From Ignavibacteria bacterium (GTDB taxonomy: Bacteria > Bacteroidota > Ignavibacteria > DATCTW01), in assembly GCA_036567745.1 (NCBI GenBank), contig DATCTW010000054.1, positions 37,488 through 101,487 of the forward strand: 64,000 nucleotides of DNA, in the 5' to 3' direction. A program made the position numbers and the translations under genes. Below are positions 27 to 23,888 of the stretch, in pieces. The first letter of the stretch is position 1; each line of letters opens with the position of its first letter. The notes under the pieces are model-generated. The model was not told the DNA's origin. It saw only the letters and a list, made by a program, of their open reading frames with translations, and did no database searches.

Positions 27-1784
27 TTGCAATCGATTGGTGATTTTTATGAGAAGGTACTAAGTATAAAGTTCAAGTTTAAAAATAAAAGGATTAAAGT
101 TGTTTTTGATAATTCTTTAAGAAAGCAAAAGGGTGTTTTTTATACGCCTCAATCAATCGTTGAGTTAATGATATCTGAGGTTTTAAAAGATAAGAAAAAC
201 TCTAATAATAAATTATACCTAAAAGTCTTTGACCCGTCATGTGGAACAGGAAATTTTTTAGTGGAATTTTTTAATAAATTTCTCACACAGAATAATGAAA
301 AGAAAACTTTAAAAAATTTATCAAAAAAACAAATATCTCTTTTTAATGATGAAATAATAAAGAATGAAATATCTTTAAAGGAGAAAAAAAATATAATTAA
401 AGAATTTATATTTGGTATTGATGTTGATCCAATAGCTATTAGGCTTTTAAAAACAATTTTTTTATTGAAGCTTTATGAAAATGAGAAAAACTTTAAAATT
501 GATAAAAGCTTAATAAAAATTCTGGATAAAAATTTGATAACCGGTAACTTCTTAAATTCAATTGAAAATGAAAAAGATAATATTCTAAACAAAAATTATA
601 AAAAAGGTTTTGATGTTATTATAGGCAATCCTCCATGGGTTACGATAAGGAAAAATGAAATTGGGAAAAGGAAATGGGATGAGTTGCGAAAACAGTATAA
701 ATCAGTTTCTATCTTTAAATTTAATTTATTCCCGATTTTTCTTGAAAAGTGCATAAGTATGATGAAAAAAGATACTATGATATCTTTTATTATACCTCAA
801 AGATTGCTTGATGCTCCAAGTTATTTTCATTTAAGAAATATTATGATTGATCAAAAATTGATTAGAAGAATCTTGAAAATTAATTCAAACAATTTTGATG
901 GTGTTGTTGCTGATTCGGTAATAATATTTCTTGATAAGGTAGAAAAAAGTTTTATTGAGATTAAGAATTATGATGCAAATAATACTCTTTTGAGTATAGA
1001 TAAACTAAATTATGAAAGCATAAAATCAAGTAATTATAAAATTAATATTTCTACATCTACTCGTCATAAAGGATTAATTACAAAGATTGAAAAGCAAAGC
1101 AAGGAATTGAAAAATTATTTTTCTGTTCATGTAGGAATGATGGTTAAAAAAAGAAAAGATATGTTAAAAAACTTTGATGTAGGTGAGCCAATTATTACTT
1201 CCAAGTGTTTTTATGATTATTCCGCAATAAAACCCAAATTTCTAGATTTATCAAAAGCTAAAATATATGGTGGTCTAAAAGATTTTAAAAAGCATTCAAT
1301 AACACCTAAACTAATTATAAAAAAAACCGGCAACAAAATAATATCTACATTAGAGCCTTATGGTTCTTTAGTTGAACAATCATGTTATTTATTACTTCCA
1401 AAGTCTAAGATCGATATATTCTTTTTCTTGGCACTACTTAATTCAAAATTAATTAATTTTTATTATAGAGTTAATCTCATAACTAATCCAGTTTCATTCC
1501 CATATATTCAACATTATGATTTAGAAAAACTACCATTATTTGATATTGAAAAAATAGTTAATAAAAAAGAATTAATTGAAGAAATTTCAAATGAATCAAA
1601 AAAAATTATAACATTGGAACAGACATTTTTACAGAAAGAAAAGAACAGGAGTAAAATAGTGATTGAAAAAAAGAAGGATAATATTAATGAAATGATTTAT
1701 AAATTATATGATTTATCTCAATCTGAAGTAAATGAAATAAATATGTTTGAAAAAAATTATTTTTTAAGTAAATCAGATACTTGA
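27..1784 (+). CDS. N6-adenine DNA methyltransferase (gamma-class) with C-terminal target-recognition domain; reading frame is open to the window edge, so the 5' end may lie upstream
   Basis: Motif I-like 'FDPSCGTGNFL' and catalytic 'GNPPW' (NPPY/W-type) seen in the translation; C-terminal 'LLNSKLINFYY' resembles TaqI/Eco57I-type TRDs; first in-frame start is TTG at 27 with no upstream stop before position 1. Confidence 0.8.
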   Translation: MQSIGDFYEKVLSIKFKFKNKRIKVVFDNSLRKQKGVFYTPQSIVELMISEVLKDKKNSNNKLYLKVFDPSCGTGNFLVEFFNKFLTQNNEKKTLKNLSKKQISLFNDEIIKNEISLKEKKNIIKEFIFGIDVDPIAIRLLKTIFLLKLYENEKNFKIDKSLIKILDKNLITGNFLNSIENEKDNILNKNYKKGFDVIIGNPPWVTIRKNEIGKRKWDELRKQYKSVSIFKFNLFPIFLEKCISMMKKDTMISFIIPQRLLDAPSYFHLRNIMIDQKLIRRILKINSNNFDGVVADSVIIFLDKVEKSFIEIKNYDANNTLLSIDKLNYESIKSSNYKINISTSTRHKGLITKIEKQSKELKNYFSVHVGMMVKKRKDMLKNFDVGEPIITSKCFYDYSAIKPKFLDLSKAKIYGGLKDFKKHSITPKLIIKKTGNKIISTLEPYGSLVEQSCYLLLPKSKIDIFFFLALLNSKLINFYYRVNLITNPVSFPYIQHYDLEKLPLFDIEKIVNKKELIEEISNESKKIITLEQTFLQKEKNRSKIVIEKKKDNINEMIYKLYDLSQSEVNEINMFEKNYFLSKSDT

Positions 1785-1831
1785 CATTCTCAATTATTCT
1801 AAATATATTCCAAACAAAAATTTTTGGAGTT

Positions 1832-3373
1832 ATGCTTTCCACTATTTTAAGTTGTACCACGTATGGGATAAATGCCTATATCGTAAAAGTCGAGACTCAT
1901 ATTGAATCTGCAAGTTTTGGGTATTTCAATATAGTGGGTTTGCCGGATACTTCTGTTAAAGAAAGTAAGGATAGAGTTGTTTCGGCGATAAAGAATTGTG
2001 GTTTTAGTTTACCTATAAGGCGAATAGTAGTAAATCTGGCTCCCGCAGATATTAAGAAAGAGGGCTCCGGATTTGATTTACCTATAGCGTTAGGTATAAT
2101 TGCTGCTCAAAATGAAGAGTTATTAGAGAGAATAAAAGATTATGTTTTTGTTGGTGAATTATCACTTGATGGGAAGTTGAGACCTGTAAAAGGTGCTCTT
2201 TCTATGGCTATTGAAGCAAAGAATCAGAATGTTAAGGGAATTATTCTTCCAATTTCAAATGCTAGAGAAGCAGGTATAGTAAAAGGGTTAAATGTATACC
2301 CTATGGAAAATTTTAATAATGTAATTGATTTTTTAAATAATCAAATAAATATAAGCCCAATTGAAATAAATGTTGAGGAGATTTTTAAAAGTGATTCAAA
2401 ATATAATTTAGATTTTGCTGATGTTAAAGGTCAGGAGAATGTTAAAAGATCTCTAGAGGTAGCAGCTGCTGGTGCGCATAATGTTATTATGATTGGTCCT
2501 CCGGGCTCCGGAAAAACAATGCTAGCAAAAAGAATTCCTTCGATATTACCTCCTTTAACTTTTGAAGAAGCAATAGAAACTACTAAAATTCATTCTATAG
2601 CAGGTTTATTACCACATAATTCAACAGTGCTTACAACCAGGCCATTTAGATCACCTCATCATACGATTTCTGATGCTGCTCTTGTTGGTGGTGGTCAGGT
2701 TCCTCGACCCGGAGAAATATCACTGGCACATTTTGGTGTATTATTCCTTGATGAATTACCTGAATTTGCAAGAAATGTTCTTGAAGTGTTACGTCAACCG
2801 CTTGAAGATTCACATGTAACAGTAAGTAGGTCCAAGCTTTCTATTGACTACCCGGCTAATTTTATGCTTGTTTGTGCTATGAATCCTTGTCCCTGTGGTA
2901 ACTATGGAAATCCAAATCAAGAATGTACATGTACAAATCAACAGATACAAAAATATATTTCTAAAATATCTGGTCCACTTATGGATAGAATTGATATTCA
3001 TATTGAGGTTGCCAGTGTTAAATATAAAGAACTTTCAGATAAAAGACATGGAGAACCATCATCAATGATAAGAGAAAGAGTAATAAAAGCACGGGAGATA
3101 CAAAGAAAAAGATTTGAAAATTATAAAAGTGTTTTTACCAATGCCGATATGCAATCAAAAGAAATTAGAGAGTTTTGTAAATTAGATGATAAGTGTGAAA
3201 TTTTATTAAATAATGCCATGACTAAGTTAGGACTATCTGCACGGGCTTATAGTAGAATTTTAAAAGTTTCAAGAACAATAGCTGATTTAGATTCTTCGGA
3301 TAATATAAGAGCTGATCATATAAGTGAAGCTATACAATATAGAAGTCTTGATAAAAATATTTGGTTATCATAA
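1832..3373 (+). CDS. comM: YifB/ComM family Mg-chelatase-like AAA+ ATPase
   Basis: Walker A 'GPPGSGKTML', Lon-like N-terminal region and ChlI-like C-terminal region; start chosen at internal ATG (M18 of the ORF) preceded by GGAG. Confidence 0.85.
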   Translation: MLSTILSCTTYGINAYIVKVETHIESASFGYFNIVGLPDTSVKESKDRVVSAIKNCGFSLPIRRIVVNLAPADIKKEGSGFDLPIALGIIAAQNEELLERIKDYVFVGELSLDGKLRPVKGALSMAIEAKNQNVKGIILPISNAREAGIVKGLNVYPMENFNNVIDFLNNQINISPIEINVEEIFKSDSKYNLDFADVKGQENVKRSLEVAAAGAHNVIMIGPPGSGKTMLAKRIPSILPPLTFEEAIETTKIHSIAGLLPHNSTVLTTRPFRSPHHTISDAALVGGGQVPRPGEISLAHFGVLFLDELPEFARNVLEVLRQPLEDSHVTVSRSKLSIDYPANFMLVCAMNPCPCGNYGNPNQECTCTNQQIQKYISKISGPLMDRIDIHIEVASVKYKELSDKRHGEPSSMIRERVIKAREIQRKRFENYKSVFTNADMQSKEIREFCKLDDKCEILLNNAMTKLGLSARAYSRILKVSRTIADLDSSDNIRADHISEAIQYRSLDKNIWLS

Positions 3374-5420: not shown

Positions 5421-5939
5421 TTAAGTTTCTTCTATGTTTGTACTTTCTTGTCCGTGTTCTGTATTTTCTTGTTCACTATCCTCATTCACAGTATCGTGTT
5501 CAATGTTTGAATCTAAAGATTCTGTTGGAATAGATGTGGTTTCACTCATAATAATTTCAGTTGATTCTTCTTCGATTTTGAGATTTTCTACAAGTTTTTT
5601 TACACCGGAATTTTTGAATCTTACTACTATAACACTATTACCATTAGAAATAATTTCTTTTGATTCTACTAGACCAACATCATCCCATTCAGCATGAAAA
5701 ATACCATCACCAGGAGAATACTCTTTTAGAGGAGAGTACTCTATACAATTTTCTTTTTCTGGAATTTCCTTTGATTCTTTTTTTTCTTCGTTAATAGTAT
5801 TTAAATCTATACAAAAAGAATGATGGCATCGCGTACATTCGAACCAGCCTTTATTTTCTTCCGGTTCTTTTAAAATGACCATTTTGGTCACTTTTTTACA
5901 TGATGGACAATTTATTTCTTTAAATTTACTTTTAGCCAT
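5421..5939 (-). CDS. hypothetical zinc-ribbon protein with acidic C-terminal tail
   Basis: Two CxxC pairs (CPSCKK ... CTRCHH) near the N-terminus, Glu/Asp-rich C-terminus; immediately upstream of rpsU on the same strand. Confidence 0.5.
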   Translation of the reverse strand: MAKSKFKEINCPSCKKVTKMVILKEPEENKGWFECTRCHHSFCIDLNTINEEKKESKEIPEKENCIEYSPLKEYSPGDGIFHAEWDDVGLVESKEIISNGNSVIVVRFKNSGVKKLVENLKIEEESTEIIMSETTSIPTESLDSNIEHDTVNEDSEQENTEHGQESTNIEET

Positions 5940-6551
5940 ATTTTAATATAATATTATTTTTTAAAACAATCAAGTTAGTTTTTTTAATCTTTGTTATTTT
6001 GTCAAAAAAAACTTTCTAATATAATTTTATCATACTAATTAAAATAATGGATATTTTATTACCTTATGTTTATTATATGAAAAATATTACTTAAATTTAA
6101 ATTGCTTTATGATTATTTTAAGTGGTTAAAAAGTATGTTCAATTAGTTCGTTATAATTCTATTCTCCAACCATGAAATTACTGAATTAGGTTCTTCAAAA
6201 AGCTAAGTAATTAAATTTAAATAATTTTTAATTTCTAATAATGTTTTTTTGATTCTTGATACAAAACAGCATATAATTAAAATAATCAATATGCTATTAA
6301 ATTTATTATTTATGCCTTTTTATGGTATTGCTTTTAAGAATGAAATTGCGAATATTATAGTCAGTATTGTAATAATTTTACTACAGTATAGAGTAAAAAA
6401 TGTATTTTAAATTATACAAAAGTTTATAAAACTTATGCAAATATTTAATTTATTGTAAAATAATAATTTAAATATATTGATAATCCGTTATTTTAAAAAA
6501 AATTATGGCATATTTTTTGAAGTTTTATTGGTAGGAAAAACGGAGGTTATT

Positions 6552-7526
6552 ATGAAAAAGTTTAAAAATTTAATTATTGTGCTAGCATTCTTATCTATTG
6601 CTTCTTTTTTAAATGGATGCTATACACAAATTAGCACAGTAAGAGATGATGATAGCGATAGATATTATTCAACAAGTGATCCATTATATAATTACACAGG
6701 CACTGATTCAACCAGGCCAAACACAATAATCAATAATTATTATATGGATTATCCTCGATATCGTTACTCATTTAATTATTACTACCCTTATAGATTTTAC
6801 AGCTATGATCCATGGTGGGATTTTGATTATGTGTTTTCTTTTAGTTGGGCATTTGGATGGAATACTTGGTATTACCCATACTATCCTTATCCTTATTATT
6901 ACTCACCCTACTACTATCATCCTTTAGTATTTCACTATCCATATAATTGGTATTATAGAGATAGGGATTATTATAGATGGGGGAATGATACTCGATATTT
7001 TGGAAGTACAAGAGGTGGGTCTTCTAGATCATCGGGTGTATCAAGAACTGGAAGTAACTATCCTGGTGTGAATATTAATAGAACGAATGTTAATACAGAA
7101 GTTGATAGAGGTACAAGGACGGGTACAAATGTAAGAACAGATGAATCTACAAGGGGAGCAAGAACTGGTACGGGTGATAATGATAGAAGTGGAGTTAGAT
7201 CTAATAATACTCGAAATAATGAAAATACAAGAAACTCTGGCAACACTAGAGGTAATAGATACGAAAACATATACAACCAAAATACAAACCCTCAACCAAT
7301 TATTAAGGATAATAACAGAAATTTAACACCAGTTCAAATACAACCGAATCCTTCTTCTAGAATTGGAAGGAGTAGTGGTTCGGGTTATAATTATGATCAT
7401 AGCAGTTCAGGAAGTAGATCTTCATCAAGTTCTGGTAATTCAGGAAGAAGCTCTGGTAATTCTGGTGGTTCAAGTAACTCTGGTGGAGGTAATCGAAGTA
7501 GTGGCGCAACAAGAGGAAATAGATAA
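6552..7526 (+). CDS. low-complexity lipoprotein: Tyr/Trp/Pro-rich aromatic block followed by Arg/Gly/Ser/Asn/Thr-rich tail
   Basis: Lipobox 'FLNGC'; 'YYPYYPYPYYYSPYYYHP' block; repeated TRG/RGG/SGNSG motifs; start placed at internal ATG preceded by GGAGG (ORF track starts at 6477). Confidence 0.5.
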   Translation: MKKFKNLIIVLAFLSIASFLNGCYTQISTVRDDDSDRYYSTSDPLYNYTGTDSTRPNTIINNYYMDYPRYRYSFNYYYPYRFYSYDPWWDFDYVFSFSWAFGWNTWYYPYYPYPYYYSPYYYHPLVFHYPYNWYYRDRDYYRWGNDTRYFGSTRGGSSRSSGVSRTGSNYPGVNINRTNVNTEVDRGTRTGTNVRTDESTRGARTGTGDNDRSGVRSNNTRNNENTRNSGNTRGNRYENIYNQNTNPQPIIKDNNRNLTPVQIQPNPSSRIGRSSGSGYNYDHSSSGSRSSSSSGNSGRSSGNSGGSSNSGGGNRSSGATRGNR

Positions 7527-7553
7527 ATTTTAATATATTTTGAAAGAACCGAT

Positions 7554-8156
7554 ATGAAAACAAAGCATTTTATATTATTTGTATCATTTGTGATACTTAT
7601 CTCAGGTTGTTATACAGTTTTAAGGCATCCAGAAGTTCCGAATCAGGATGAAATGGGTAATGTATATCATCAAAATATTGATACAAGAGATAATTGTTAT
7701 AGTTGTCATTCTCAAAGAAATGACCAAATTTATGACTATGAACGATATATGAATTATTATACTGATTATGGGAATGAACACAATTACTATCCACAAAGTA
7801 GATGGGATAGTTATTATAATGTTCCATGGTGGTTTACTCCTCCAAAAGTAACAGTTGGGGTTGGTTCAACTCCAAAACAAGAAACAAATGTTAATAAGTC
7901 AACATCTAATCAAGATAACAATAGTGTTAGAACAAGTGGTTCATCAAGAGGTAGTGATGTAAAAATATCAGCTCCTGCTCCTACAAGAGGAACTACAGGA
8001 AATAGCAATAATACTAGTTCTTCAAACACAAATAATAATAATAATGTAAGTAATTCAAATACTAGAAGCACAAATAGCAATGGTAATAAAACAGATTCTT
8101 CAAATTCAAATAATAATAATGATAAAAGAAATACTGGTTCAACAAGAGGGAAATAG
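7554..8156 (+). CDS. low-complexity lipoprotein (Tyr-rich N-terminal half, Asn/Ser/Thr-rich tail); composition paralog of the upstream gene
   Basis: Lipobox 'ISGC'; 'YYTDYGNEHNYYP...YYNVPWWF'; poly-N/S tail ending 'STRGK' like the upstream protein. Confidence 0.5.
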   Translation: MKTKHFILFVSFVILISGCYTVLRHPEVPNQDEMGNVYHQNIDTRDNCYSCHSQRNDQIYDYERYMNYYTDYGNEHNYYPQSRWDSYYNVPWWFTPPKVTVGVGSTPKQETNVNKSTSNQDNNSVRTSGSSRGSDVKISAPAPTRGTTGNSNNTSSSNTNNNNNVSNSNTRSTNSNGNKTDSSNSNNNNDKRNTGSTRGK

Positions 8157-8162
8157 GTAATT

Positions 8163-9572
8163 ATGAAAATAAAATCTTTTATTTTAGCAATATCGCTTTT
8201 ATTATTAATAAGCGCTTCATCTTATTCTCAATTTATTGAAGATGCACTTAGATTTCTTCAACCCAATACTGGAACGGGCGCAAGATCCCTTGGTATTGGT
8301 GGCGCTTATACTGGTGTAGCAGATGATTTTACAGCTGTATGGTGGAATCCTGCGGGTTTGGGTCAAATTAAAAAGTTTGAATTAACGGGTGGTATTTCAA
8401 ATTATAATTATAGTGATGATGCAGATTTTTTAGGAAATACGAAAAATTATTCTAATAGTTCTACTACTTTAAATAATCTCGGTTTTGTTTTTCCATTTCC
8501 TACTGTAAGAGGTAGTCTTGTATTTGCATTAGGGTATAATAGAACAAATAATTTTACTACAGGAATGTCTTTTAATGGTTTTAATACAATTAGTTCAATA
8601 ATACCTTCTCTAATTCGAAATAATAAAGAATATAATATTCCTTATCAAATATTCTTGACTGATAACTCAGGTTTTTATACACCTCTAACAAAAAATTTAA
8701 ATCAAAGAGGTGATGTACTAGAATCTGGCTCATTAGGTAATTGGGCATTTTCTGGTGCCTTAGAAGTCGCTCCAAATTTATTTACAGGTATATCTCTTCA
8801 TATTGCTACAGGTTCATATAATTATGATAGAAGTTATATTGAAGAAGATACGAGGAATTACTATACTTTTCTTGATACATTACATTATTCAAGTATAGAT
8901 TTTACCAGACTCGATTTATCTGATAAAATTAGTGGAGATTATTCTGGTTTTGGGGCTCAGTTAGGTATTTTATATAAGTTTTCAGATAAACTTAGATTTG
9001 GATTAACTATTAAAACACCATTTAAGTATAATATCAAAGAAGATTTTTCAACCAAAGGCACTTCATATTTTGATAATGGTGATTCTTATTCTTATAAAAC
9101 TACTGGTTCTGGTGAATATGATGTAACAACACCTTTTGTTTTCAGTACCGGTATATCTTATTCAATAAAAGGAATATTACTTTCCGGTGATATTGATTGG
9201 ATTGATTATACTCAACTTGAGTTTAGCAATGCAAATGAAGATGTTGAAGACTTAAATAGAGATATTAAATCATATTTAAGGTCGGTAGTTAATTTTAGAG
9301 GGGGAATTGAATATACAATACCTAATATAGATTTGAAAGTGAGAGGTGGTTATGCTGTTTATCCTTCACCTTTCAAAGATGATCCTTCAGAGTATAACCA
9401 GAAAATTTTATCCTTTGGATTAGGATATCTTGTTGAAGAAAGCTTAATGATAGATGCAACTTATAGTATTAATTCATTTACTACAAGAAGAGTAAATTAT
9501 GATTATACCTCTCAAACTATTGAAAAAGTTAAAGCAAGTAATTTACTGGTAACTTTGTCGTTTAGATTTTAA
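8163..9572 (+). CDS. outer-membrane beta-barrel protein, FadL/OMPP1/TodX-like (PorV-like not excluded)
   Basis: Signal peptide; N-terminal 'GARSLGIGGAYTGVADDFTAVWWNPAGL' resembles the FadL-family N-terminal hatch motif; C-terminal 'SFRF' aromatic terminus typical of OMPs. Confidence 0.6.
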   Translation: MKIKSFILAISLLLLISASSYSQFIEDALRFLQPNTGTGARSLGIGGAYTGVADDFTAVWWNPAGLGQIKKFELTGGISNYNYSDDADFLGNTKNYSNSSTTLNNLGFVFPFPTVRGSLVFALGYNRTNNFTTGMSFNGFNTISSIIPSLIRNNKEYNIPYQIFLTDNSGFYTPLTKNLNQRGDVLESGSLGNWAFSGALEVAPNLFTGISLHIATGSYNYDRSYIEEDTRNYYTFLDTLHYSSIDFTRLDLSDKISGDYSGFGAQLGILYKFSDKLRFGLTIKTPFKYNIKEDFSTKGTSYFDNGDSYSYKTTGSGEYDVTTPFVFSTGISYSIKGILLSGDIDWIDYTQLEFSNANEDVEDLNRDIKSYLRSVVNFRGGIEYTIPNIDLKVRGGYAVYPSPFKDDPSEYNQKILSFGLGYLVEESLMIDATYSINSFTTRRVNYDYTSQTIEKVKASNLLVTLSFRF

Positions 9573-9591: not shown

Positions 9592-9625
9592 AAAAGCCAT
9601 CGATAATACTCGATGGCTTTTTTAT
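9592..9625 (+). terminator. rho-independent terminator
   Basis: Hairpin gccatcga-taatac-tcgatggc followed by ttttttat. Confidence 0.65.
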
Positions 9626-9707
9626 TGCACTTCACCTTGATTTAATCAATAATATTCAATATATTTGTACAATTTAATTTTACATTTCATAATTTCCGAG
9701 GAGATTT

Positions 9708-10734: not shown

Positions 10735-11304
10735 TTATTTTAAGGTATAATTTAATAAAATAGATAATTCGGGTAAAGTATTTATCTTGAGCTCCAAATC
10801 GAGGTACTTAAGTATTTTTATCCCTTCTGAAATTTCAAAATAAATATTCTTTTTATTTTTTGAAAAATCATATTTAGCTCCTACACTAATAATTGGATCC
10901 TTAAAAGATAATAAGTTCTCAATTTCATAAAATTTTATTTGGCCATTTTCTGAGATAATTTTATAACTATCAGAGAATGAAGAAAAAGTTGTTTGTAAAA
11001 ATTCCGAATTATATAAACTTAAAACATTTATCATATCTTTTTCTTTTTTTATTTCGATTATATTTCGATCCTTTTCAATTTGTTTTATTTTTACCGAATC
11101 AAGTTTTTGATGTTTAATCACTTTAGGTTTTTTATTCTTCATTTTAATATTGGATTTTTCTTTTTCCCATTTCTGAAAAATTAAAGTATCTCTTACTATT
11201 TCTGTAAAATCGGATTTTCCAGTTGATTTAATATCATTTAATAAGTAACCTAAATAAAATATCAAGACTGAATATATTATAAATAAAATAATTTTAGAAT
11301 TCAT
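10735..11304 (-). CDS. hypothetical membrane-anchored protein
   Basis: N-terminal hydrophobic helix 'IILFIIYSVLIFYLGYLL'; Lys-rich; no recognisable motif. Confidence 0.4.
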   Translation of the reverse strand: MNSKIILFIIYSVLIFYLGYLLNDIKSTGKSDFTEIVRDTLIFQKWEKEKSNIKMKNKKPKVIKHQKLDSVKIKQIEKDRNIIEIKKEKDMINVLSLYNSEFLQTTFSSFSDSYKIISENGQIKFYEIENLLSFKDPIISVGAKYDFSKNKKNIYFEISEGIKILKYLDLELKINTLPELSILLNYTLK

Positions 11305-11305
11305 T

Positions 11306-11899
11306 TTATTCCCTGAAAGATATAAATCCTTTTAATTTCAACCAACCAAATTTATTTACAGCTCTTTTTTTAATAAAAACACCATCATTAGAATTATCTT
11401 CATTAGAGGTATTGCCTTCTAAAGTGATTATATAATTATTGTGATATTCAAGTAAAAAAGCTGTATGCCCCCAAATACTATTTGTTTTTTCAAAAATGAC
11501 CCAATCGCCATATTCGGGTTTTAAATAACTTTTTATTCCATGTTTTGAAACATAATTAAAAAGCAAAAGTGATTGGCCAGTTTTTAGCAAATTAAATTTA
11601 GTAAATAGCTCTGATGCAGCAGTTCTATATGCCCATTGACAAAAAGCAACACACCAAGCATTACCACTTTTCAGTTCTATTGAGTTTAGGAAGATATCAA
11701 TCCATTTACCTGAATTACTTTTTGGAGGAGTTTCTACTATACCTATCATATTTTTTGCTTTTTGCATCCCATTTTTTATTATTTCTTGAGAATTCTTTTG
11801 TTGAATAACATATTTAATTTGCGCCAAGCACAAATCCGACAAGCAAACAAATACCAGTAAAAGTAATTGCTGCAGAAATATTATTTTTAGATATCTCAT
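11306..11899 (-). CDS. CHAP/NlpC-P60-like amidase-fold protein (putative)
   Basis: Conserved Cys context 'GNAWCVAFCQW' and downstream 'WGHTAFLLEY' consistent with a Cys-His hydrolase; N-terminal signal-like segment. Confidence 0.45.
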   Translation of the reverse strand: MRYLKIIFLQQLLLLVFVCLSDLCLAQIKYVIQQKNSQEIIKNGMQKAKNMIGIVETPPKSNSGKWIDIFLNSIELKSGNAWCVAFCQWAYRTAASELFTKFNLLKTGQSLLLFNYVSKHGIKSYLKPEYGDWVIFEKTNSIWGHTAFLLEYHNNYIITLEGNTSNEDNSNDGVFIKKRAVNKFGWLKLKGFISFRE

Positions 11900-12146
11900 T
11901 TGTAAAGTTTACTCCTTTAAAATCGAATGTTTTAATTAAATATACAGTGCCACCACCTAACGATAAGTTAATAAGTTTGACTGATAGCATTTCAATTGTA
12001 AGCTCACCACTTAACAAAGCAATTAATAAAATGATGAGAGCAAATAATCCTAAAATATAATAAATTAAATATTCTCTTTTAAGCAACTCGTTAAGTTTAA
12101 TTGAGAATATTACACTCTTACTTTTTGCTACTGATAGAATTTTCAT
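11814..12146 (-). CDS. small integral membrane protein
   Basis: 110 aa with two predicted TM helices; overlaps the start of the downstream ORF by 86 nt, so one of the two starts may be misplaced. Confidence 0.4.
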   Translation of the reverse strand: MKILSVAKSKSVIFSIKLNELLKREYLIYYILGLFALIILLIALLSGELTIEMLSVKLINLSLGGGTVYLIKTFDFKGVNFTNEISKNNISAAITFTGICLLVGFVLGAN

Positions 12147-12343: not shown

Positions 12344-14662
12344 CTATTCAATCTTTGAGGTTTTTATTTTAACATTATCAAGTGGATATGTAAATAGTTC
12401 ATCAACTGAAAAAACATTTGAAAAATCTTCAGCTGTAAAGAAAACTTTTAATTTATCAGCCATTTCAAACAATCTATTTTGATAGTATTCGATACTTTCA
12501 TCTCTAAAATTTGGGTTCCATTCTGAAGCTAATTTTAAGTTCTCACAACCGAAATAAATATCTTTAGGATTAATTTTTGTATCTAAAATTCCATGTGTAA
12601 GATTTTGCATTCTTTGAATTACTTCTTTATCAATATTTAATCTTTTATGAACTGCTTCATCACTAATAACGTAAAAAGAAATTTTATCATTAATTTTATA
12701 ATTTTTCCCAGTTGAAAGTGCAAGTTGGTAGTGGGGAATTATGTTCTTTTTATCATTTTTTACTTTAAAATTATAATCGCTTAAAGATTCTTTTATTATC
12801 TCTGTACGCATAAAATCAGAAATATCAAGTTTTCGATCTCTAATATCATTATAGTAAGATACAAATAGATTATGAATCTCTTGAATTTTATTATTTAAAA
12901 TATAATCTATACATTGTAGTAAAAATTTTCTGGCAAAATTTTCTAAATTATGAGGGAAAAGTAAATTCGTTTTCATTAAAATTTTGTTGTTATAGAGTAG
13001 AAAAGCCATATTTTTCTTTTTGTAGCTCAGTACTCGTCTTGCCCTAAATTTATACTCTATCCCTTCAACTTCTACCATTTTTTTTGAAAGCATCGAAACA
13101 TAGGATTTTTCAAGATCTTCATTAGTAACATCTCTTGGAGGAACAAATATTATCTCATTACCATCAACTTGAACAGGAATGCCCCCAGTATAAGATATAT
13201 ATTTTGTAATTTTTTCCATCAATTCTTTTGCTAGTTGAAAAACATTTTCGCCATATTCTTTCGAATTATAAATAACCCATGGTGTGTTAAGATATGAAAA
13301 AAAAGAATGTGAAAAGTTTTCAAGAGCTTTTTTAAAATCGGGTTCAAAGTTTTCTCTATCGCTTTCATTATCAGAACTTGATTCTGAAACTTCTTCAGGT
13401 TTAACGATATTCATTATATCTTGAAGCATTTTTTTAAATAAATCCAACGGATCTTTTTCTGATTTAAATTCTGATTTAAGAATAGCATTTTGATATAGCT
13501 TTATTACTTCGCATACAATTATTGGACCTAAAACCCCAGTATAGTATATTTCACTTATTTGACCTATAGATGGATCTGTTTTATCTGGTAAAGGTAAAGA
13601 ATATCTTTGTTTTAGATATTCACGGTATAAGATAGAATCTATTTTTTGTGCATTAGTTAATTTTAAAACTCTTCCTAAATTGTAAGAAATTAATCTGTTT
13701 AAATAAAAAACGGATGGTAAAAGTTTTTCGCAAATTTCATTTATAATGATGCAATTATTAAAAGGTTTTTCTGGTTCATCATTTGAAATTTTATCGTCGA
13801 TTTTAATATTAAATAAATTGATTATATTATTTAAAGATCCAATATCTTGTAACTTTTTTATTACATCGAACTGTAAAACAAGATCATTGATGTCAACAAA
13901 ATGTCTACCCGGAATTACAATTTTATTTTTTTCAAAGTCATAGTCATACTTGAAAAATCTTTCTTGTTTTTTAATGGGCAAAGAGTTCCTACCAATATTT
14001 AATTCAATATTAAACTCTTCACATTTTTTTATTAAAAAATCTAATGTATATGAATACAAATTATAACCCGCAATAATATCAGGGTCTTTTTCAATAATGA
14101 TTGATATGAATTCTTGTATTTTTTGAGCGTCATTTTTTCTATTGTCTTGAATAATTTTTTTCCAACCTTTATTATCTGTCAAAATAATTGCAGAAATTTC
14201 CTGATGTTTATCTTTTGTACTCTTTTTTGTGATAAGTTCTATATTAATTCTATATAAATCGGAAAAATTAAGACCTTTAAATAGTGTTTTACCGTACTCG
14301 ATAAGATATTGGCCAACAGGATCATTTTTAATACTAATTTCAATGAAATCTTTTTCAGAAATATTTTTTTTCTTTCTAATTGTATCAAATGCAAAATTAT
14401 AAGCATTTTTTAAATCATTCCAATTTTGAAAAACACATAAATATTTATAATAATTATTACCTTGCAATTTCTTTTTTAAAGGTTGAGGATTAAATTCTTC
14501 AAGTAATGAAATATCTGATATAAAGAAAAATGGATAAAACTCTCTATCTTCGTATGATACTATATTATTTATTTTTTTATAAACTCTAATAGTTTTTTCA
14601 TTTAGTTGATAACAGGCAATTATGTTTTGTTCAGGGTCTGAACCAAATAGAAAAGAAGTCAT
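12344..14662 (-). CDS. family-B DNA polymerase-like protein with degenerate catalytic motifs
   Basis: Exo II-like 'GYNLYSYTLDFLIKK' (cf. PolB 'GYNIQNFDLPYLI'); inter-domain 'LLPSVFYLNRLISY...ILYREYLKQRYSLPLPDK' resembling the archaeal PolB 'LSRLIGQ...LLRKAYERNELAPNK' stretch; Y-GG-like 'YYTGVLGP'; motif A-like 'CEVIKLYQNAI' (Asp to Glu); motif C-like 'VQVDGNEI' (DTD to DGN); KxY-region-like 'SKKMVEVEG'. Confidence 0.55.
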   Translation of the reverse strand: MTSFLFGSDPEQNIIACYQLNEKTIRVYKKINNIVSYEDREFYPFFFISDISLLEEFNPQPLKKKLQGNNYYKYLCVFQNWNDLKNAYNFAFDTIRKKKNISEKDFIEISIKNDPVGQYLIEYGKTLFKGLNFSDLYRINIELITKKSTKDKHQEISAIILTDNKGWKKIIQDNRKNDAQKIQEFISIIIEKDPDIIAGYNLYSYTLDFLIKKCEEFNIELNIGRNSLPIKKQERFFKYDYDFEKNKIVIPGRHFVDINDLVLQFDVIKKLQDIGSLNNIINLFNIKIDDKISNDEPEKPFNNCIIINEICEKLLPSVFYLNRLISYNLGRVLKLTNAQKIDSILYREYLKQRYSLPLPDKTDPSIGQISEIYYTGVLGPIIVCEVIKLYQNAILKSEFKSEKDPLDLFKKMLQDIMNIVKPEEVSESSSDNESDRENFEPDFKKALENFSHSFFSYLNTPWVIYNSKEYGENVFQLAKELMEKITKYISYTGGIPVQVDGNEIIFVPPRDVTNEDLEKSYVSMLSKKMVEVEGIEYKFRARRVLSYKKKNMAFLLYNNKILMKTNLLFPHNLENFARKFLLQCIDYILNNKIQEIHNLFVSYYNDIRDRKLDISDFMRTEIIKESLSDYNFKVKNDKKNIIPHYQLALSTGKNYKINDKISFYVISDEAVHKRLNIDKEVIQRMQNLTHGILDTKINPKDIYFGCENLKLASEWNPNFRDESIEYYQNRLFEMADKLKVFFTAEDFSNVFSVDELFTYPLDNVKIKTSKIE

Positions 14663-18202: not shown

Positions 18203-18937
18203 ATGAAATTGTATTTATTAATGTATCTTTTTTTTGCTGAATCATCTAAAGATCCTTTAATTAACTATCTAAATCAACTTGGGAAAGAATTTAATAAATT
18301 CTTTCCTTATGTAAATATTTTTCTTATTTTATGCCTTTTCGTGTTTATTTTTGGTATATTTCTTTTTCATAGTACTTTTGTGATATCTTTTGCAAGTAAA
18401 CTAACTAAAATGGTTAGTAAAAAGTTCTCTAAAGATTTAGAAGAGCTTTCACTTGCATTAAGTAAAAAGGGAAATTATTTGGGCTATAAATGGTTGAAAG
18501 AAAAAAATGAAGAAGAACTTACTAGTAGAAAAATATTTGAAGATTGGATGCAAAATGTATTTACTCAAGAATATTTTAATAATGTAACTGCATTTGCCTA
18601 TTTTGGTGCTTCAATACTTATTTTTATTATCGGGTTGCGTGGAATAAGAATATTTATAACATCAGAAACTCCGATGTTAGTAATTTTTGGTATTATGCTT
18701 GAGTTTAGTATGCTTATACTTTTAGCCTTTACACAATTTTATACACCTGAAACACTTGAATCGGAAAAAGAAGAAAAGGGTCCAATAATTGAAAATCTTG
18801 TAAAAGAGGTCAATAAGTTAAAAGGTACTTTAGGAATAATTGAAAAAGAATTAGAAGATGCTAAAAAATTAGTAAGGGATGCTCAAGATTCTCTTGATAA
18901 TAATACTGATCAGGAATTCTGGAGAGTAAAACGTTAA
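18203..18937 (+). CDS. inner-membrane protein with three TM segments and a C-terminal cytoplasmic coiled coil; MotA/TolQ/ExbB- or GldL-like topology (hypothetical)
   Basis: Hydrophobic segments at about aa 34-63, 126-150 and 156-180; Glu embedded in the last helix ('GIMLEFSMLILL'); charged heptad-like tail 'IENLVKEVNKLKGTLGIIEKELEDAKKLVRDAQDSL'. Confidence 0.45.
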   Translation: MKLYLLMYLFFAESSKDPLINYLNQLGKEFNKFFPYVNIFLILCLFVFIFGIFLFHSTFVISFASKLTKMVSKKFSKDLEELSLALSKKGNYLGYKWLKEKNEEELTSRKIFEDWMQNVFTQEYFNNVTAFAYFGASILIFIIGLRGIRIFITSETPMLVIFGIMLEFSMLILLAFTQFYTPETLESEKEEKGPIIENLVKEVNKLKGTLGIIEKELEDAKKLVRDAQDSLDNNTDQEFWRVKR

Positions 18938-18955
18938 TCACAAAGAGGCTATAAA

Positions 18956-19726
18956 ATGAATCAAAAAGGAAATAATGGTGGTAGTAAGCTTTGGATAGTG
19001 TTGTTTGCTGTAGCTCTTATTGAATTTTTGTATATAGTATTTATGCAACCAAAGCCTATACCTTGCCCAATAAAAATTGAAGGTAAAGTTGAAGATTATT
19101 TAAAAAATTCAGCATCCCCTATTTTAGCAGCATTACCTAATAAGGTAATTGTTTTTCCAGTGGATGCTCAAGATAATACTGGTAAAGTGATTTCTAAAAA
19201 TGGTGACTATGAGACTACAATAAACATTTCTTTACCTTATTATTATGATTCAAAAGCTCTTGAAACATTAAAAGAAACAGTTTCTTTAGAAAATGTTGTT
19301 TATATACCTCAAAAGGGTAAAGAAGCACAAAAACCAACCAAAAGTGATGAAGAAATCATTCAAATTCTAAATAACTCCTCTGAGGTGGAAAACAATCTTT
19401 TTAGTATAGATAAAGGGAATATTGTAGCTAATAGTAATAGTAATGAAATATTAATTCCTGTTAAGTTTAAAATTTACAATACAGGTTTATATAAATTTAA
19501 ATTAAATGGTAAATTAGAGAGAGCTTCATTAGTAAATAATAGTGGAGAAGAAAAGTTAAAAATTGCAAATGGTTATTTTGATATAAACAATAACGAACAG
19601 TTAAAATCTAATATTCTCTCAAATTGGAACAGGTTTTCACAAAACTTTTATATTATGGTTATGGATGCAACAAAACCTGAAGTTCCAGGAGTGTTAGCTC
19701 CTAAGGTAGAAGTACATCCAAAGTAA
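18956..19726 (+). CDS. single-pass membrane protein, periplasmic domain (paralog A of pair)
   Basis: N-terminal TM 'LWIVLFAVALIEFLYIVF' with embedded Glu; shares 'YNTGLYKFKLNGKL' and C-terminal 'PKVEVHPK' with the next gene. Confidence 0.45.
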   Translation: MNQKGNNGGSKLWIVLFAVALIEFLYIVFMQPKPIPCPIKIEGKVEDYLKNSASPILAALPNKVIVFPVDAQDNTGKVISKNGDYETTINISLPYYYDSKALETLKETVSLENVVYIPQKGKEAQKPTKSDEEIIQILNNSSEVENNLFSIDKGNIVANSNSNEILIPVKFKIYNTGLYKFKLNGKLERASLVNNSGEEKLKIANGYFDINNNEQLKSNILSNWNRFSQNFYIMVMDATKPEVPGVLAPKVEVHPK

Positions 19727-19747
19727 ATAATCGGGAGTAAGAATTAA

Positions 19748-20590
19748 ATGAGCAAATCTAGTAGTAATACATATAAAATTTATTTTATACTTTATTTAGC
19801 AGTAATTTTAGAATTGCTTTTAGTGATTGTTGAAAGAGATGACGCAGAAGATGATTTAAAAAAACAGAAGAGTAATATTGAGCAGGCTTTTGTTACATTT
19901 TTGACTGGCCTTGCTCAACCTCCTGAAGCAACTACAAGACAGGAAGTCTTAAAGATTTATGCTGATGCTGATGAAGCAAGCGGTTTGATTAATAAAAAGA
20001 CTTTCTCTGATACAAGCTTTTATATTACAATCCGTGGTGTGCATGATCTGGAAACTCTTAAGAATATCGAACTAATTCAAACTTTAATGGTTCCATTATC
20101 AGGTAAGGCATCCAGAGAGCCAAGGCCTGATAGTATAGTCAAACGGGAACTTGATTTAGCAAAAGACAGTTTAAATCATAATTATGTAAAAATTCATTTT
20201 GATAGAAGATTTTTAGAGCTTGATGGGAAAGATACTGTACTGAGAGTTCCGGTAACAATTAATTTTGATAGAACAGGTTTTTATAAATTTAAATTTGATT
20301 ATTATCTTGATAAATTAACTTTTGTACCAAATGCCAATAATCCTGATTCAATTAAGTTAGGTAATATTACTGCTGCTTTTCACATTGTTTATAATATGGA
20401 AAGGTTTACTAAGTTAGGTCCCAAAATTCTTGAAGGAGAGAAAAACTATCAACCAGCTAAACTAGAAGCTATTGTAAAGGAACTAAACAATCAATGGAAC
20501 AGGGCTGAAAATATTTTAATTTTACAAATAATTGATTCTAGCATTCCTGAGCCAGAACGGCCACCTAAAGTTCAGGTTCATACTCCATAA
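19748..20590 (+). CDS. single-pass membrane protein, periplasmic domain (paralog B of pair)
   Basis: N-terminal TM 'IYFILYLAVILELLLVIV' with embedded Glu; 'DRTGFYKFKFDYYLDKL' and C-terminal 'PKVQVHTP' match paralog A. Confidence 0.45.
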   Translation: MSKSSSNTYKIYFILYLAVILELLLVIVERDDAEDDLKKQKSNIEQAFVTFLTGLAQPPEATTRQEVLKIYADADEASGLINKKTFSDTSFYITIRGVHDLETLKNIELIQTLMVPLSGKASREPRPDSIVKRELDLAKDSLNHNYVKIHFDRRFLELDGKDTVLRVPVTINFDRTGFYKFKFDYYLDKLTFVPNANNPDSIKLGNITAAFHIVYNMERFTKLGPKILEGEKNYQPAKLEAIVKELNNQWNRAENILILQIIDSSIPEPERPPKVQVHTP

Positions 20591-20633
20591 ACAACTAATA
20601 TGTTTAATATGGCAAAATTTTAGGAGATTTAAA

Positions 20634-21755
20634 ATGAATATAAAAAGGTTTGTTGAAATAGTACTTTTAGTTATATATTTTTGTTTTGCGTTAATGGCTC
20701 AAGTACCAGATACTCGTACAGGTATTGAAGTTGAATCACCAATTAAGACATACATAGCTGCTAAAGACAATTGGAAAACAATTCCTTTTGTTGTTTCAAA
20801 TGCTAAAAAAGCATCAGCAAAATCACCGATAATTGAATCTTTAAGTGGAGCTGAGATTGTTAAATTTGATAGTCAAACAGTAAATAAAGTTATTGGAGAG
20901 AAAATAATAACAAATGATCCCAATGCTGTTGCAAATCAGGAAGGACAAAATTTTGAATATAGGTTTATACCTCGTGAAGCTGGCGACTATAAAATCACTT
21001 TAATAGGTTATGATGCTTCTAGACCAAATGATAGAGATGGAATAGGAGAAAAAGAAGTAAGATTGAAAGTTGTATATCCATTTTTCAAAGATATTGGTGT
21101 AGCTCCACCTTTACAGGCTTATGAAGGGGAAGATTTATTTATAAACTTTTTTGTTAATGGTCTTGAAAATGGAAATGAGTATAAAATAGTTAGAACATGG
21201 AAAGAAAAAACAGATACAATTCCTGGCTCAATATTTGAAATGACAGAAGAAAAAGGTAATCAAATTGCGAAAGGTGATGCAGGGCAAGTTTTAAAACTTG
21301 TAGTGTTATATCAAGGAAGTATATTTTACTATCTTGAGGGAGATAGTGCAAGTTTGGAAAATGCAGAAGAAGGACAGAAAATTAATATTGCAACTTTACA
21401 ACCAAAACCTTCAATTTTTAATATACCTGTAGTAAAACAAGCTCCTCAGGTTACGATTCCAAGAAATGATGTTCCTTATGGTGAGCGTATCGAGTTTACT
21501 GCATATTATAAAGGTGCGGAAAGAGGTGAACCTGTTCAGTTAAATGAAATAGAAAGACCAAGAGTCATAAATTTAAAAAATAATCAGAATATTTATCAAA
21601 AGCATGAACAACTTTCACCAGGTAAATTTGCTATCTATGTTAAAACAGGGCTTACTATTCCAAAAGATGGTCTCCCTATAAAAGTGATTGTAAAAGTACG
21701 TGGACAGGGGAAAGAATTTAATCAAAGTATAAAATTAGTCAAAAAGAAAAAGTAA
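20634..21755 (+). CDS. secreted/periplasmic hypothetical protein
   Basis: Signal peptide 'LLVIYFCFALMAQ'; start set at internal ATG with AGGAG RBS (ORF track begins at 20532); no known motif recognised. Confidence 0.45.
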   Translation: MNIKRFVEIVLLVIYFCFALMAQVPDTRTGIEVESPIKTYIAAKDNWKTIPFVVSNAKKASAKSPIIESLSGAEIVKFDSQTVNKVIGEKIITNDPNAVANQEGQNFEYRFIPREAGDYKITLIGYDASRPNDRDGIGEKEVRLKVVYPFFKDIGVAPPLQAYEGEDLFINFFVNGLENGNEYKIVRTWKEKTDTIPGSIFEMTEEKGNQIAKGDAGQVLKLVVLYQGSIFYYLEGDSASLENAEEGQKINIATLQPKPSIFNIPVVKQAPQVTIPRNDVPYGERIEFTAYYKGAERGEPVQLNEIERPRVINLKNNQNIYQKHEQLSPGKFAIYVKTGLTIPKDGLPIKVIVKVRGQGKEFNQSIKLVKKKK

Positions 21756-21804
21756 TTTAAGATACAATCTTAAATCATTATGTAGATGTTTTGGGAGATA
21801 AGAT

Positions 21805-23844
21805 ATGATAAAATTAAAATCTACTATTTTCATGGTTTTGTTTCTTTTTTTGTTTAGCGAAGGATTTTCTCAGAATATAAATGATAATATTCAGAAGTTG
21901 GATAGTTTAGCCTCAAAGCTAACTCAAAAAAATAAAGTTATTCGTGATGTAGCTACTTATAAAGTATTTCCTGAGAATAGTGATAACATCACAGATAATG
22001 GATATCTTTATACTAAAATGAATGGTTATCAACTTCCTTTAAACCATCCTTTAGTAAAATTATTGGATGAAATTTTTTATAATGAAGATCAAAATGGAGT
22101 AGTTGTATCAAATGATAAAGCTATAGGTTATAGAAAGGATGGACAGGATAAAACTTATAAAAGAGGCAATCTTTTCAGAGAAGATTCAACTATTGGAGTA
22201 AACGTTTATTATGCGCAGAAACCAAAATCACAAATGAATACAAGTGTTACAAAACGTTTTGAAATAGCTGAGATATTAATTCTTAAGAAGACAAATATAC
22301 CAGATGTTGATCAATCTGAAGAAGAGGAAGAAACTGGTACCAGAAGACGTACAAGGACTAAAACCACAAAATATATACAATATCCAAAAAATATGTGGTA
22401 TTCACTTTCAGGAACAAATTTAAAGAAAGCATTAGAAGGTTATGATAAAAATTTATATAATCAGATATTACGTTTATATGATGAGAGAATCGATGATTTA
22501 AATTTGAGCCCTTATTTCCCATTACCTAAAAGAGGTCCATTCCTTGTATCTGACTCTCTTGGTATAAATACTTTTACCAGTTATTTTACTAATACTCCAA
22601 TCTTCACTCCTCCTTCACCTGAAGAAACTATTAATAATTTACCTGAAGTTACTGGATTAGATCCTAACTCATTAGATGTTACTGCTTTTTCACCTTTTAT
22701 TAATGTCAAAGCAGGTGTAGATAATATTACAACAATACCTATTTCGAATAGATCAAAAAATCCAATAAAAATTGAGCAAGTTTCTTTAGAAAAACCAGAT
22801 CCTGTATGGAAAATTAAGAGTGCGGTATCAGTATTAGAACCTGAAAATTCATCAGAAATTGAGGTTGTATATAATCAATCTAAACCTGATAAAGAAGATA
22901 GGAATAATCTTATAATAAAGTGGTCTGAAGAGGGAGTTAAAACTGGAACTACTGTTGTACCTATAGCTGGAAAGACATCTCCTGAACCCCCGAGAATCTT
23001 TATAGATTTTTCACCACTATATTTTTCAGGTATATTTAGATTTGCAAATGATTGGAATTTTTCTTTTAAATTAGGTGATAAAGAAATAAATTATCCTTTC
23101 TGGTCAACAGGTAATTTAAGTTTACTTGCTGGATATCAGAATATTGTTAAGTTTGGTGTTGTATTACCTGCTAATTTTACAAATGGTGAAACCTTTGATG
23201 TTGGTTCAATAGTTGCTCCTCAGAGAAAACTTCATGGTACTGTAGGTTTGGCAGTTGAATTTAATTTGCAACCCACAGTGATGAGAAGTATTAATGAAGC
23301 TTTTGCTTTAGGTGGATATTTCTATTATGGTAAAATTAAAGATGGTAAAGAATATAGTAAGAAACCTCTAAATATTAATAATGATTTTTATTATGTGCCA
23401 ATTATAGCTCAAGTTTACTATCCTCTTATATTTAAGGATCTGGAGAAAAACCCTAAGAACATATTTCAAGTAAAAGCTGGTTTTAGTTACCATCAGGTTA
23501 AAAGAGAGCATATAATAACTAAATCGGAAATAGGACAAATGTTTTATGGGAAAGAAGAAAGATTAGTAACAAAGGATGATGTTGGCAAAGTGTATGAAGT
23601 AGAACTTATTAAGAAAGTTCCTTCACCTCTTGTTAGAATAGAATATATGAATCTTAATTCAGGTAATCAATTTGGTTTTGGTTTCCAGTTTGTTAATAAC
23701 ATTGCTAATTTTGATGCATGGCTTGAAGTTACAAAATGGTTGAGGATAGAAGCTTCGTACGTTCAACCTTTGAGAGATGCTGAAGAATGGGAAAATTCTG
23801 CTTTCTTCTGGATTTCACCGAGAATTTATTTCCCAATACCATAA
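21805..23844 (+). CDS. secreted hypothetical protein, probable outer-membrane component
   Basis: Signal peptide 'MVLFLFLFSEGFSQ'; C-terminal half rich in alternating aromatic/hydrophobic beta-strand-like segments. Confidence 0.4.
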   Translation: MIKLKSTIFMVLFLFLFSEGFSQNINDNIQKLDSLASKLTQKNKVIRDVATYKVFPENSDNITDNGYLYTKMNGYQLPLNHPLVKLLDEIFYNEDQNGVVVSNDKAIGYRKDGQDKTYKRGNLFREDSTIGVNVYYAQKPKSQMNTSVTKRFEIAEILILKKTNIPDVDQSEEEEETGTRRRTRTKTTKYIQYPKNMWYSLSGTNLKKALEGYDKNLYNQILRLYDERIDDLNLSPYFPLPKRGPFLVSDSLGINTFTSYFTNTPIFTPPSPEETINNLPEVTGLDPNSLDVTAFSPFINVKAGVDNITTIPISNRSKNPIKIEQVSLEKPDPVWKIKSAVSVLEPENSSEIEVVYNQSKPDKEDRNNLIIKWSEEGVKTGTTVVPIAGKTSPEPPRIFIDFSPLYFSGIFRFANDWNFSFKLGDKEINYPFWSTGNLSLLAGYQNIVKFGVVLPANFTNGETFDVGSIVAPQRKLHGTVGLAVEFNLQPTVMRSINEAFALGGYFYYGKIKDGKEYSKKPLNINNDFYYVPIIAQVYYPLIFKDLEKNPKNIFQVKAGFSYHQVKREHIITKSEIGQMFYGKEERLVTKDDVGKVYEVELIKKVPSPLVRIEYMNLNSGNQFGFGFQFVNNIANFDAWLEVTKWLRIEASYVQPLRDAEEWENSAFFWISPRIYFPIP

Positions 23845-23888
23845 ATGAAAATATGAAAATAAAAATAAAGATGTGGAGTTCGATTATT

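Follow-up and report, generated by a model that had tools for sequence, protein, structure and literature searches.

What could two lipoproteins made up largely of tyrosine, tryptophan, arginine and small polar residues be doing beside an outer-membrane barrel? The question is raised by three consecutive forward-strand genes in a 64,000-nucleotide stretch of DNA from an Ignavibacteria bacterium (assembly GCA_036567745.1, contig DATCTW010000054.1, positions 37,488 to 101,487; the whole stretch is called the window below, and positions refer to it). The genes encode two lipoprotein precursors, here named A and B, and a FadL-family outer-membrane beta-barrel. A and B represent a conserved, unannotated lipoprotein family whose arrangement with the barrel parallels that of the Bacteroidota proteins BamG and BamH, although the nature of the lipoproteins differs.

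Two tyrosine-rich lipoproteins upstream of a barrel

A first-pass annotation, made from the sequence alone, described a pair of adjacent lipoproteins, each with an extremely aromatic block and a basic Arg/Gly/Ser/Asn/Thr tail with a terminal TRG, followed by a FadL-family barrel. This description was confirmed, and the strings quoted in support of it (YYPYYPYPYYYSPYYYHP, WYYRDRDYYRW and YYNVPWWF) were all found in the sequence. The gaps measure 27 nt between A and B and 6 nt between B and the barrel gene, and since only a single terminator hairpin follows downstream, the three genes are treated as one unit (Table 1). The mechanical open reading frame (ORF) of A opens at a TTG at 6477, whereas gene callers on identical public contigs give the 324 aa protein listed in Table 1.

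Both lipoproteins stand apart from the rest of the window in composition. The best 60-residue segment has a Tyr plus Trp fraction of 0.47 in A and 0.25 in B, compared with at most 0.17 in the other 50 ORFs of the window, and over 100 residues Arg, Gly, Ser, Asn and Thr together account for 76% of the tails of A and B versus at most 0.62 in ORFs elsewhere in the window. Short motifs recur beyond what this composition predicts, as judged by 5000 shuffles: [ST]RG occurs four times in A (0.81 expected, P 0.008) and three times in B (0.16 expected, P 0.0004), while RxxGxxR occurs four times in A (0.35 expected; reached by no shuffle, P < 0.0002) and twice in B (0.04 expected, P 0.0002). The C-termini of both proteins read RxxGxTRG(N/K). 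The claim that such a composition is rare was borne out in that no Pfam or NCBIfam family covers it; searches of these databases with the window proteins and ten diverse relatives of A and B yielded no credible match for either. Apart from these lipoproteins, it is chiefly in eukaryotic phase-separating proteins that such a composition is known.

Word-indexed homologue searches gave only 4 proteins for A and 14 for B, and synteny traced through the barrel, together with an exhaustive profile search, was used instead. Scanning for barrel loci with one genome per species produced 80 loci, of which 74 had enough upstream flank to be informative; A and B were counted in them with hidden Markov models (HMMs) built on the loci. 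The titles of most of the 80 give Ignavibacteria, Ignavibacteriota, Ignavibacteriales or "Bacteroidota bacterium"; a few loci from co-assembled metagenome-assembled genomes (MAGs) bear the label Chitinophagales or Chlorobiaceae, and a single locus that of Candidatus Kryptonium. The synteny with the FadL-like gene, which the first-pass annotation had proposed to check, proved strongly positive: an A-type gene lies upstream of the barrel gene in 74 of 74 informative loci, and a B-type gene lies between the two in 25 of them, with no B in the other 49. The A profile retrieved 601 clusters (50% identity) at E <= 1e-3 and 240 at E <= 1e-10, and the best 150 clusters listed were mostly full-length matches of 300-400 aa. 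In the source databases these proteins are named either "hypothetical protein" or, spuriously, "YgcG".

Given how extreme the composition is, A and B might instead be spurious ORFs in low-complexity DNA or decaying pseudogenes, and one locus would seem to agree, since A is split into two frames near position 3640 of a MAG contig (L007:3093-4065; the contig is the same as that of L014). The naming of this contig suggests a long-read assembly, and the frameshift is therefore likely a sequencing or assembly error. Elsewhere, across about 75 diverged species that differ widely in GC content, A and B have intact frames with lipoprotein signals and several invariant motifs, and the best 150 A clusters listed are mostly of consistent length. 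Comparison of the window with a strain-level relative (locus L001) showed 8 synonymous and 2 non-synonymous codon changes in A, 3 synonymous and 1 non-synonymous in B plus an in-frame two-codon insertion (the sole indel), and 7 synonymous and none non-synonymous in the barrel gene. All three genes are thus under purifying selection between strains. The pseudogene decay that the first-pass annotation had named as grounds for dropping its claim was not found; we give the non-gene explanation next to no credence and consider it effectively refuted.

The mature A proteins start with C-Y-T-(Q)-(L/V/I/M)-(A/G/S)-T, in which the Tyr at +1 and the Thr at +2 are invariant in 75 of 75 sequences. An acidic stretch follows, then an aromatic block (median 91 aa, 41% Tyr/Trp/Phe) with the motifs (I/V)NNYY, YPRYR, F.YYYPS and YDPW, then a nearly invariant R-x5-R-x4-R segment (…TRDFGSTRGG.xR), and then a basic tail (median 175 aa; 16% Arg/Lys, 5% Asp/Glu and 60% Gly/Ser/Thr/Asn/Pro) whose Gly/Ser-rich C-terminus closes in …RGGR(R). 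Members of the B family have a lipobox, C-Y-T-(V/I/Q) and a shorter Tyr-rich part closing in an invariant P-W-W; after this come R-x2-G-x2-R, a "PPPT" patch and an Asn/Ser/Thr-rich tail ending in a second RxxGxxR or in NGGR. CYT is invariant in all B proteins, and G-C-Y-T at the mature N-terminus comprises the only positions invariant in both families. In profile-profile comparison, the alignment of A with B likewise extended no further than the signal peptide and the CYT segment (97.6% probability). Homology is thus supported for that segment only, and calling A and B tandem paralogues is not established. As the sole segment common to both, CYT has the appearance expected of a docking peptide that they share.

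The regions in question had been described as low-complexity. This holds for their composition, but they are not featureless, since CYT, YYYP, YDPW/PWW and RxxGxxR are invariant or co-varying. An AlphaFold2 prediction of B from 15 sequences returned a mean predicted local distance difference test score (pLDDT) of 48 and a predicted template modelling score (pTM) of 0.14; apart from the signal helix, no secondary structure was predicted. The wording of RxxGxxR varies by lineage, and it does so in the same way in the A and B of one genome: GSTRGG and GSSRGS in the window, and in both proteins GATRGGD at locus L017, G.TRD at L031, L053 and L071, DGP.R at L068 and LRNNDGGRN at L072. This co-variation points to a shared, co-evolving binding partner, or to gene conversion between A and B.

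One further feature of B, which the first-pass annotation did not mention, invites a different explanation. With its CxxCH, B could be a small lipid-anchored c-type cytochrome, and the module could serve outer-membrane redox chemistry, for example electron transfer or the peroxidative cross-linking of Tyr residues in A. C48, C51 and H52 are nearly invariant in B's own subclade, Pfam, NCBIfam and PDB all point weakly to the haem-binding stretch of CcoO/FixO, with which B shares the local pattern CYxCHSQ…D..ERY..Y, and a multihaem protein is encoded downstream in two loci (L010 and L011). The match, however, covers only about 35 residues and falls below every threshold (FixO scores 13.4 bits where 29.6 would be needed; E is 0.054 in Pfam and ~1.8 in the PDB), and the motif is not family-wide, being absent from the B proteins of Ignavibacteriaceae and from homologue P0134 and degenerate at L029. 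With 49 of 74 loci lacking B altogether, no distal ligand conserved and no fold predicted, we regard a redox role as very improbable.

The barrel and its likeness to BamG

The barrel was assigned to Pfam PF03349 (Toluene_X), the family of FadL, TodX and TbuX, scoring 67.3 bits where the cutoff is 29.7 (E 1.2e-18), and this domain is carried by all but one (P0111) of the 120 barrel homologues listed. Altogether 864 homologues were found at E <= 1e-5, the best named relative being from an Ignavibacteriota MAG (54% identity). AlphaFold2 confidently predicted a FadL-type barrel with an N-terminal hatch (pLDDT 85.9). When this model was compared with the PDB using Foldseek, Bacteroides thetaiotaomicron BamG came out on top (9hiv_F, 5.1e-19) with Escherichia coli FadL just behind (5.5e-18); the BamG proteins of Porphyromonas gingivalis and Flavobacterium johnsoniae also ranked high, and PorV was clearly more distant. 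As far as the predicted model goes, a channel and a BamG are not separable by fold alone.

Among 30 homologues, conservation in the barrel family is strongest at the mature N-terminus (QF.EDALR…). In an HMM alignment this N-terminus starts about 11 residues ahead of that of E. coli FadL, whose mature residue 11 corresponds approximately to mature residue 22 of the barrel. W61, N62, P63, A64 and G65 are invariant in the same 30 homologues and align to the NPA motif of FadL. At the other end, the family stops at the last strand in …(S/Y)(F/Y)RF (…SFRF in the window protein). Searches of the PDB with the barrel profile or its N-terminus, at E values up to 10, retrieved only TbuX, FadL and the N-terminus of PorV.

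The barrel had been called "FadL/PorV-like", of which the FadL part stands, by Toluene_X and by fold, while the PorV part applies only to the N-terminal ~50 residues. PorV and PorQ are anchors for PorU and PorZ; they are FadL-fold proteins like the window barrel, specific to the Fibrobacterota-Chlorobiota-Bacteroidota (FCB) group, and hold partner proteins at the cell surface. The N-terminal 50-60 residues of the window barrel match the models PorV_fam (NF033709) and PorV2 with only 44.7 bits (cutoff 90) and 39.8 bits (cutoff 325), respectively. Furthermore, by inspection of the sequences, A and B have short Gly/Ser/Arg-rich C-termini rather than the folded sorting domain of the type IX secretion system (T9SS). 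A PorV-type T9SS function was set aside; the scores are far below the full-length cutoffs, and the fold is nearer to FadL and BamG.

The family assignment suggests another possibility, namely that the barrel is a FadL-type lateral-diffusion channel for some hydrophobic compound (fatty acids, quinones, carotenoids or aromatics, for example), and that A and B capture this substrate or hand it over by means of their aromatic blocks. The above-threshold Toluene_X match, the barrel fold with its N-terminal hatch and the invariant NPA motif would all agree with this, and a block that is 51% Tyr/Trp/Phe could bind hydrophobic or aromatic ligands. In FadL, the N-terminus gates the channel, and in the window barrel the extension of about 11 residues would displace it; the N-tail moreover resembles PorV and PorV2 models, not FadL models. 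The invariant synteny with lipoproteins also separates the barrel from FadL, TodX and TbuX, and its gene context holds no substrate-related gene. To our knowledge, no FadL transporter needs partner lipoproteins, and basic Arg-Gly tails with co-varying motifs have no obvious part in hydrophobic uptake. We therefore consider the channel explanation unlikely, but the most serious of the alternatives.

BamG and BamH were found in 2025, when the complex of Bacteroidota known as BAM (beta-barrel assembly machinery) was shown to contain BamG, an essential FadL homologue (PMC12578637; PMC12611786). BamG is marked off from FadL channels by a conserved N-terminal extension of ~10-12 residues that threads the lateral opening, and a groove of BamG next to this extension receives the lipidated N-terminal tail, also conserved, of BamH, a surface lipoprotein; the paralogues BamG2 and BamH2 form a putative operon (PMC12578637; PMC12611786). 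Structures containing BamG or BamH are available as PDB entries 9hiv, 9hj3, 9hjm and 9n2d. Adjacent BamG and BamH genes are reported from the FCB genera Chitinophaga, Salinibacter, Fibrobacter, Gemmatimonas and Caldithrix, and those of Ignavibacterium album are listed as IALB_1455 and IALB_1454, also adjacent (Supplementary Table 1, PMC12611786). A and B are the only lipoprotein genes adjoining the barrel gene in the Ignavibacteria loci, including an I. album-labelled MAG (L041), and the downstream genes vary; it is thus plausible that the BamG/BamH entry for that phylum refers to the module described here.

Proposed docking of the lipoproteins on the barrel

In the reading that we favour, the barrel would be an FCB-type, FadL-fold anchor for partner proteins and not a fatty-acid channel. 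A and B would dock on it through their lipidated Cys-Tyr-Thr-(Gln/Val)-hydrophobic N-terminal tails, which would place the Tyr/Trp-rich blocks at the interface of barrel and membrane and leave the long basic disordered tails free to project outward, where the repeated RxxGxxR(G/D/N) motifs may hold a common anionic or acidic partner. By analogy with BamG and BamH, a likely parallel that the first-pass annotation did not draw, such a module could act in outer-membrane or cell-surface biogenesis. In Ignavibacteria it probably corresponds to the BamG-BamH unit of the Bacteroidota-type BAM complex, or else is paralogous to it, and works with BAM or in a similar manner. We hold this reading tentatively, as somewhat more easily wrong than right.

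Co-inheritance argues for this arrangement, as A and, where present, B lie upstream of the barrel gene with tight gaps and one terminator. The second argument is structural: the window barrel has a FadL fold and a conserved N-terminal extension of ~11 residues, with Q23, D27, A28, L29 and R30 invariant, which matches the BamG hallmark that contacts the lipidated tail of BamH, and the adjoining lipoprotein gene (A, at 74/74 loci) itself encodes a conserved lipidated N-terminal tail. The listing of adjacent BamG and BamH in I. album, set beside the finding that A and B are the sole lipoprotein genes next to the barrel, points in the same direction. Lastly, a protein with a Por_Secre_tail encoded elsewhere in the window and the taxon labels of the related loci fit an FCB-group organism, which we also count in favour of docking.

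Several points weigh against the docking arrangement. The NPA hatch motif, which is important for FadL transport, is invariant in the barrel family, and AlphaFold2 is unsure of the barrel's N-tail (pLDDT 55-61). The window barrel is without the C-terminal extension by which BamG contacts BamD. Profile searches against the PDB detected no sequence similarity to the solved BamG or BamH chains, and an exact-sequence cluster look-up of the genes of the I. album-like MAG gave no link from IALB_1455/IALB_1454 to the barrel and an A-type gene. BamH is a folded protein of two domains, the proximal one resembling a carbohydrate-binding module, whereas B is predicted to be foldless. Two or more acidic residues no further than six from the Cys constitute the Bacteroides surface-export rule; BamH has this signal, which only 1 of 75 A proteins shows, and B begins CYTVLRH. 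A and B are clearly not canonical BamH proteins, as no folded domain emerged from the AlphaFold2 prediction of B or from the profiles of A and B against the PDB, which returned only signal-peptide matches and, for B, the sub-threshold CcoO match.

Alternatively, to put the roles proposed in the first-pass annotation in concrete form, A and B might be surface material, either a Tyr/Arg-driven adhesive, matrix or condensate layer or a means of binding polyanions (extracellular DNA or lipopolysaccharide, for instance), with the barrel as exporter and/or anchor. The combination of Tyr-rich and Arg/Gly-rich segments in one chain follows the grammar of FUS-like proteins, and the lack of a predicted stable fold in B (pLDDT 48) is a further likeness to the FUS family and CsgF, the latter being a precedent for surface condensates (PMC10133297). 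In 64 of 75 A proteins, two or more Asp/Glu residues fall within positions +7 to +14 relative to the Cys, an acidic cluster resembling a displaced Bacteroidota surface-export signal, and the partners of BamG, like the known ones of PorV and PorQ, are surface proteins throughout. The resemblance to the FUS family and CsgF is nevertheless one of composition, with no homology, and A and B are lipid-anchored envelope proteins; the aromatic block of A is Pro-rich and conserved position by position, unlike the G/S-Y-G/S pattern of the FUS family. Such position-specific conservation of the block and motifs speaks for defined contacts and against unspecific adhesion. Barrels of the FadL fold have a plug, and no polypeptide translocation through them is known. 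We give this explanation a small chance; it overlaps with docking of A and B on the barrel, is compatible with it and does not exclude it.

A further variant has A and B as a new class of bacterial envelope proteins, lipid-anchored disordered polymers of a Tyr block plus an Arg-Gly tail, whose Tyr-Arg and RxxGxxR multivalency would build a gel or condensate layer on the FadL-fold anchor. Such a layer would be a membrane-tethered analogue of the FUS type, acting outside the cytoplasm as an ATP-independent holdase or organiser in place of the folded BamH canopy in Ignavibacteria. Its chances seem to us slim.

The trio bears on the role of BamG and BamH in outer-membrane protein assembly in the FCB group: throughout a whole class, one or two nearly foldless proteins occupy the lipoprotein position beside a BamG-like barrel. 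If the link to BAM is true, the trio would identify the minimal conserved element of the barrel-lipoprotein contact, and would suggest that flexible Tyr-rich segments are functional parts of the machinery (a possible parallel is loop EL3 of Bacteroidota BamA, Tyr-rich and unexplained). If the link is false, A and B would still be an unannotated outer-membrane lipoprotein family of at least 600 clusters.

Features of the unit and neighbouring genes

Coordinates of the unit are collected in Table 1. The hairpin downstream of the barrel gene was not flagged by a terminator scan and was confirmed by folding.

Table 1. Features of the three-gene unit in the window (aa, residue numbers in the precursor).
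Feature	Position	Strand	Remarks
Intergenic region	5940-6551	+	612 bp, AT-rich (about 17-25% GC); presumed promoter region of A
Gene A, lipoprotein precursor	6552-7526	+	324 aa; ATG preceded by GGAGG
A signal peptide and lipobox FLNG/C (slash, cleavage)	aa 1-23	+	
A lipidated Cys23 and conserved N-terminal tail CYTQIST	6618-6638	+	
A aromatic block, aa 63-147	6738-6992	+	51% Y/W/F, 11% P; holds family motifs YYYP, YDPW
A basic low-complexity tail, aa 148-324	6993-7523	+	Isoelectric point (pI) 11.6; 61% G/S/T/N
A RxxGxxR motifs, four	aa 148, 159, 227, 315		Last = aa 315-321 of 324
Gene B, lipoprotein precursor	7554-8156	+	200 aa; lipobox LISG/C, Cys19; CYTV tail
B CYSCH (CxxCH), aa 48-52	7695-7709	+	Possible haem c or metal site; clade-specific
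B Y-rich N-terminal part, then basic N/S/T tail			Y-rich part closes with PWW (aa 91-93); RxxGxxR at aa 126, 192; tail pI 11.0
Barrel gene, FadL-family outer-membrane beta-barrel	8163-9572	+	469 aa; signal peptide aa 1-22
Barrel mature N-terminal tail QFIEDALRFLQPNTGTG	8229-8279	+	Invariant Q23, D27, A28, L29, R30
Barrel invariant N62-P63-A64 (inside WNPAG), hatch segment	8346-8354	+	FadL-superfamily NPA motif
Intrinsic-terminator-like hairpin	9592-9627	+	12-bp stem and T-run; free energy -16.9 kcal/mol, z -4.4 (folding)

The intergenic region upstream of A is common to A and a divergent gene (5421-5939, reverse strand), which encodes a protein of 172 aa that has a zinc ribbon (CxxC…CxxC) at its N-terminus, a highly acidic tail and no family assignment, and which also adjoins the operon in the close relatives L001-L003. 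In 67 loci, a secreted protein of ~257 aa is encoded directly upstream of A (for example at L009:2622-3395, L011:2545-3345 and L041:3837-4610). It belongs to no Pfam or NCBIfam family; it weakly resembles the transmembrane barrel of OmpA (E 0.036), and its match to the YjbH N-terminus is below threshold; the gene is absent from the window and its closest relatives.

The GC content of the first 16 kb of the window is low, at about 17-37%. Near its start lies a gene for an N6-adenine methyltransferase of Eco57I/MmeI/TaqI type (27-1784, forward strand), similar to a type IIG/IIL restriction-modification component, directly followed by one for a ComM/Mg-chelatase-like AAA protein (1781-3373). Downstream of the barrel gene, on the reverse strand, a 772-aa protein (12344-14662) has as its sole match a weak one to a family-B DNA polymerase exonuclease domain (E 6e-7), and beside it lie a CHAP-domain ORF and small ORFs (10735-12146); the block is conserved in the close relatives L001 and L002.

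Six consecutive forward-strand ORFs without a Pfam match (18203-26788; 244, 256, 280, ~374, 679 and ~503 aa), after which a protein with VWA and OmpA domains is noted (25466-26788), may constitute an uncharacterised envelope gene cluster. A carotenoid cluster on the reverse strand (26812-33721) encodes an FA_desaturase-type enzyme, phytoene synthase, a CrtI-type desaturase and two 100-aa lycopene cyclase halves, as well as a Caroten_synth (CruF-like) protein, a GT2 glycosyltransferase and an acyltransferase, which suggests that its product is glycosylated and acylated. The Por_Secre_tail protein mentioned above (35517-40889, reverse strand; 1790 aa) has many Ig-like repeats of Cep192/HYDIN/ASH type and DUF1573 and represents a large T9SS cargo; an M28 peptidase gene (40906-42552) lies next to its gene, just downstream on the same strand. 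Finally, a tRNA gene is followed immediately by a gene for the small signal recognition particle RNA (48642-48821, forward strand).

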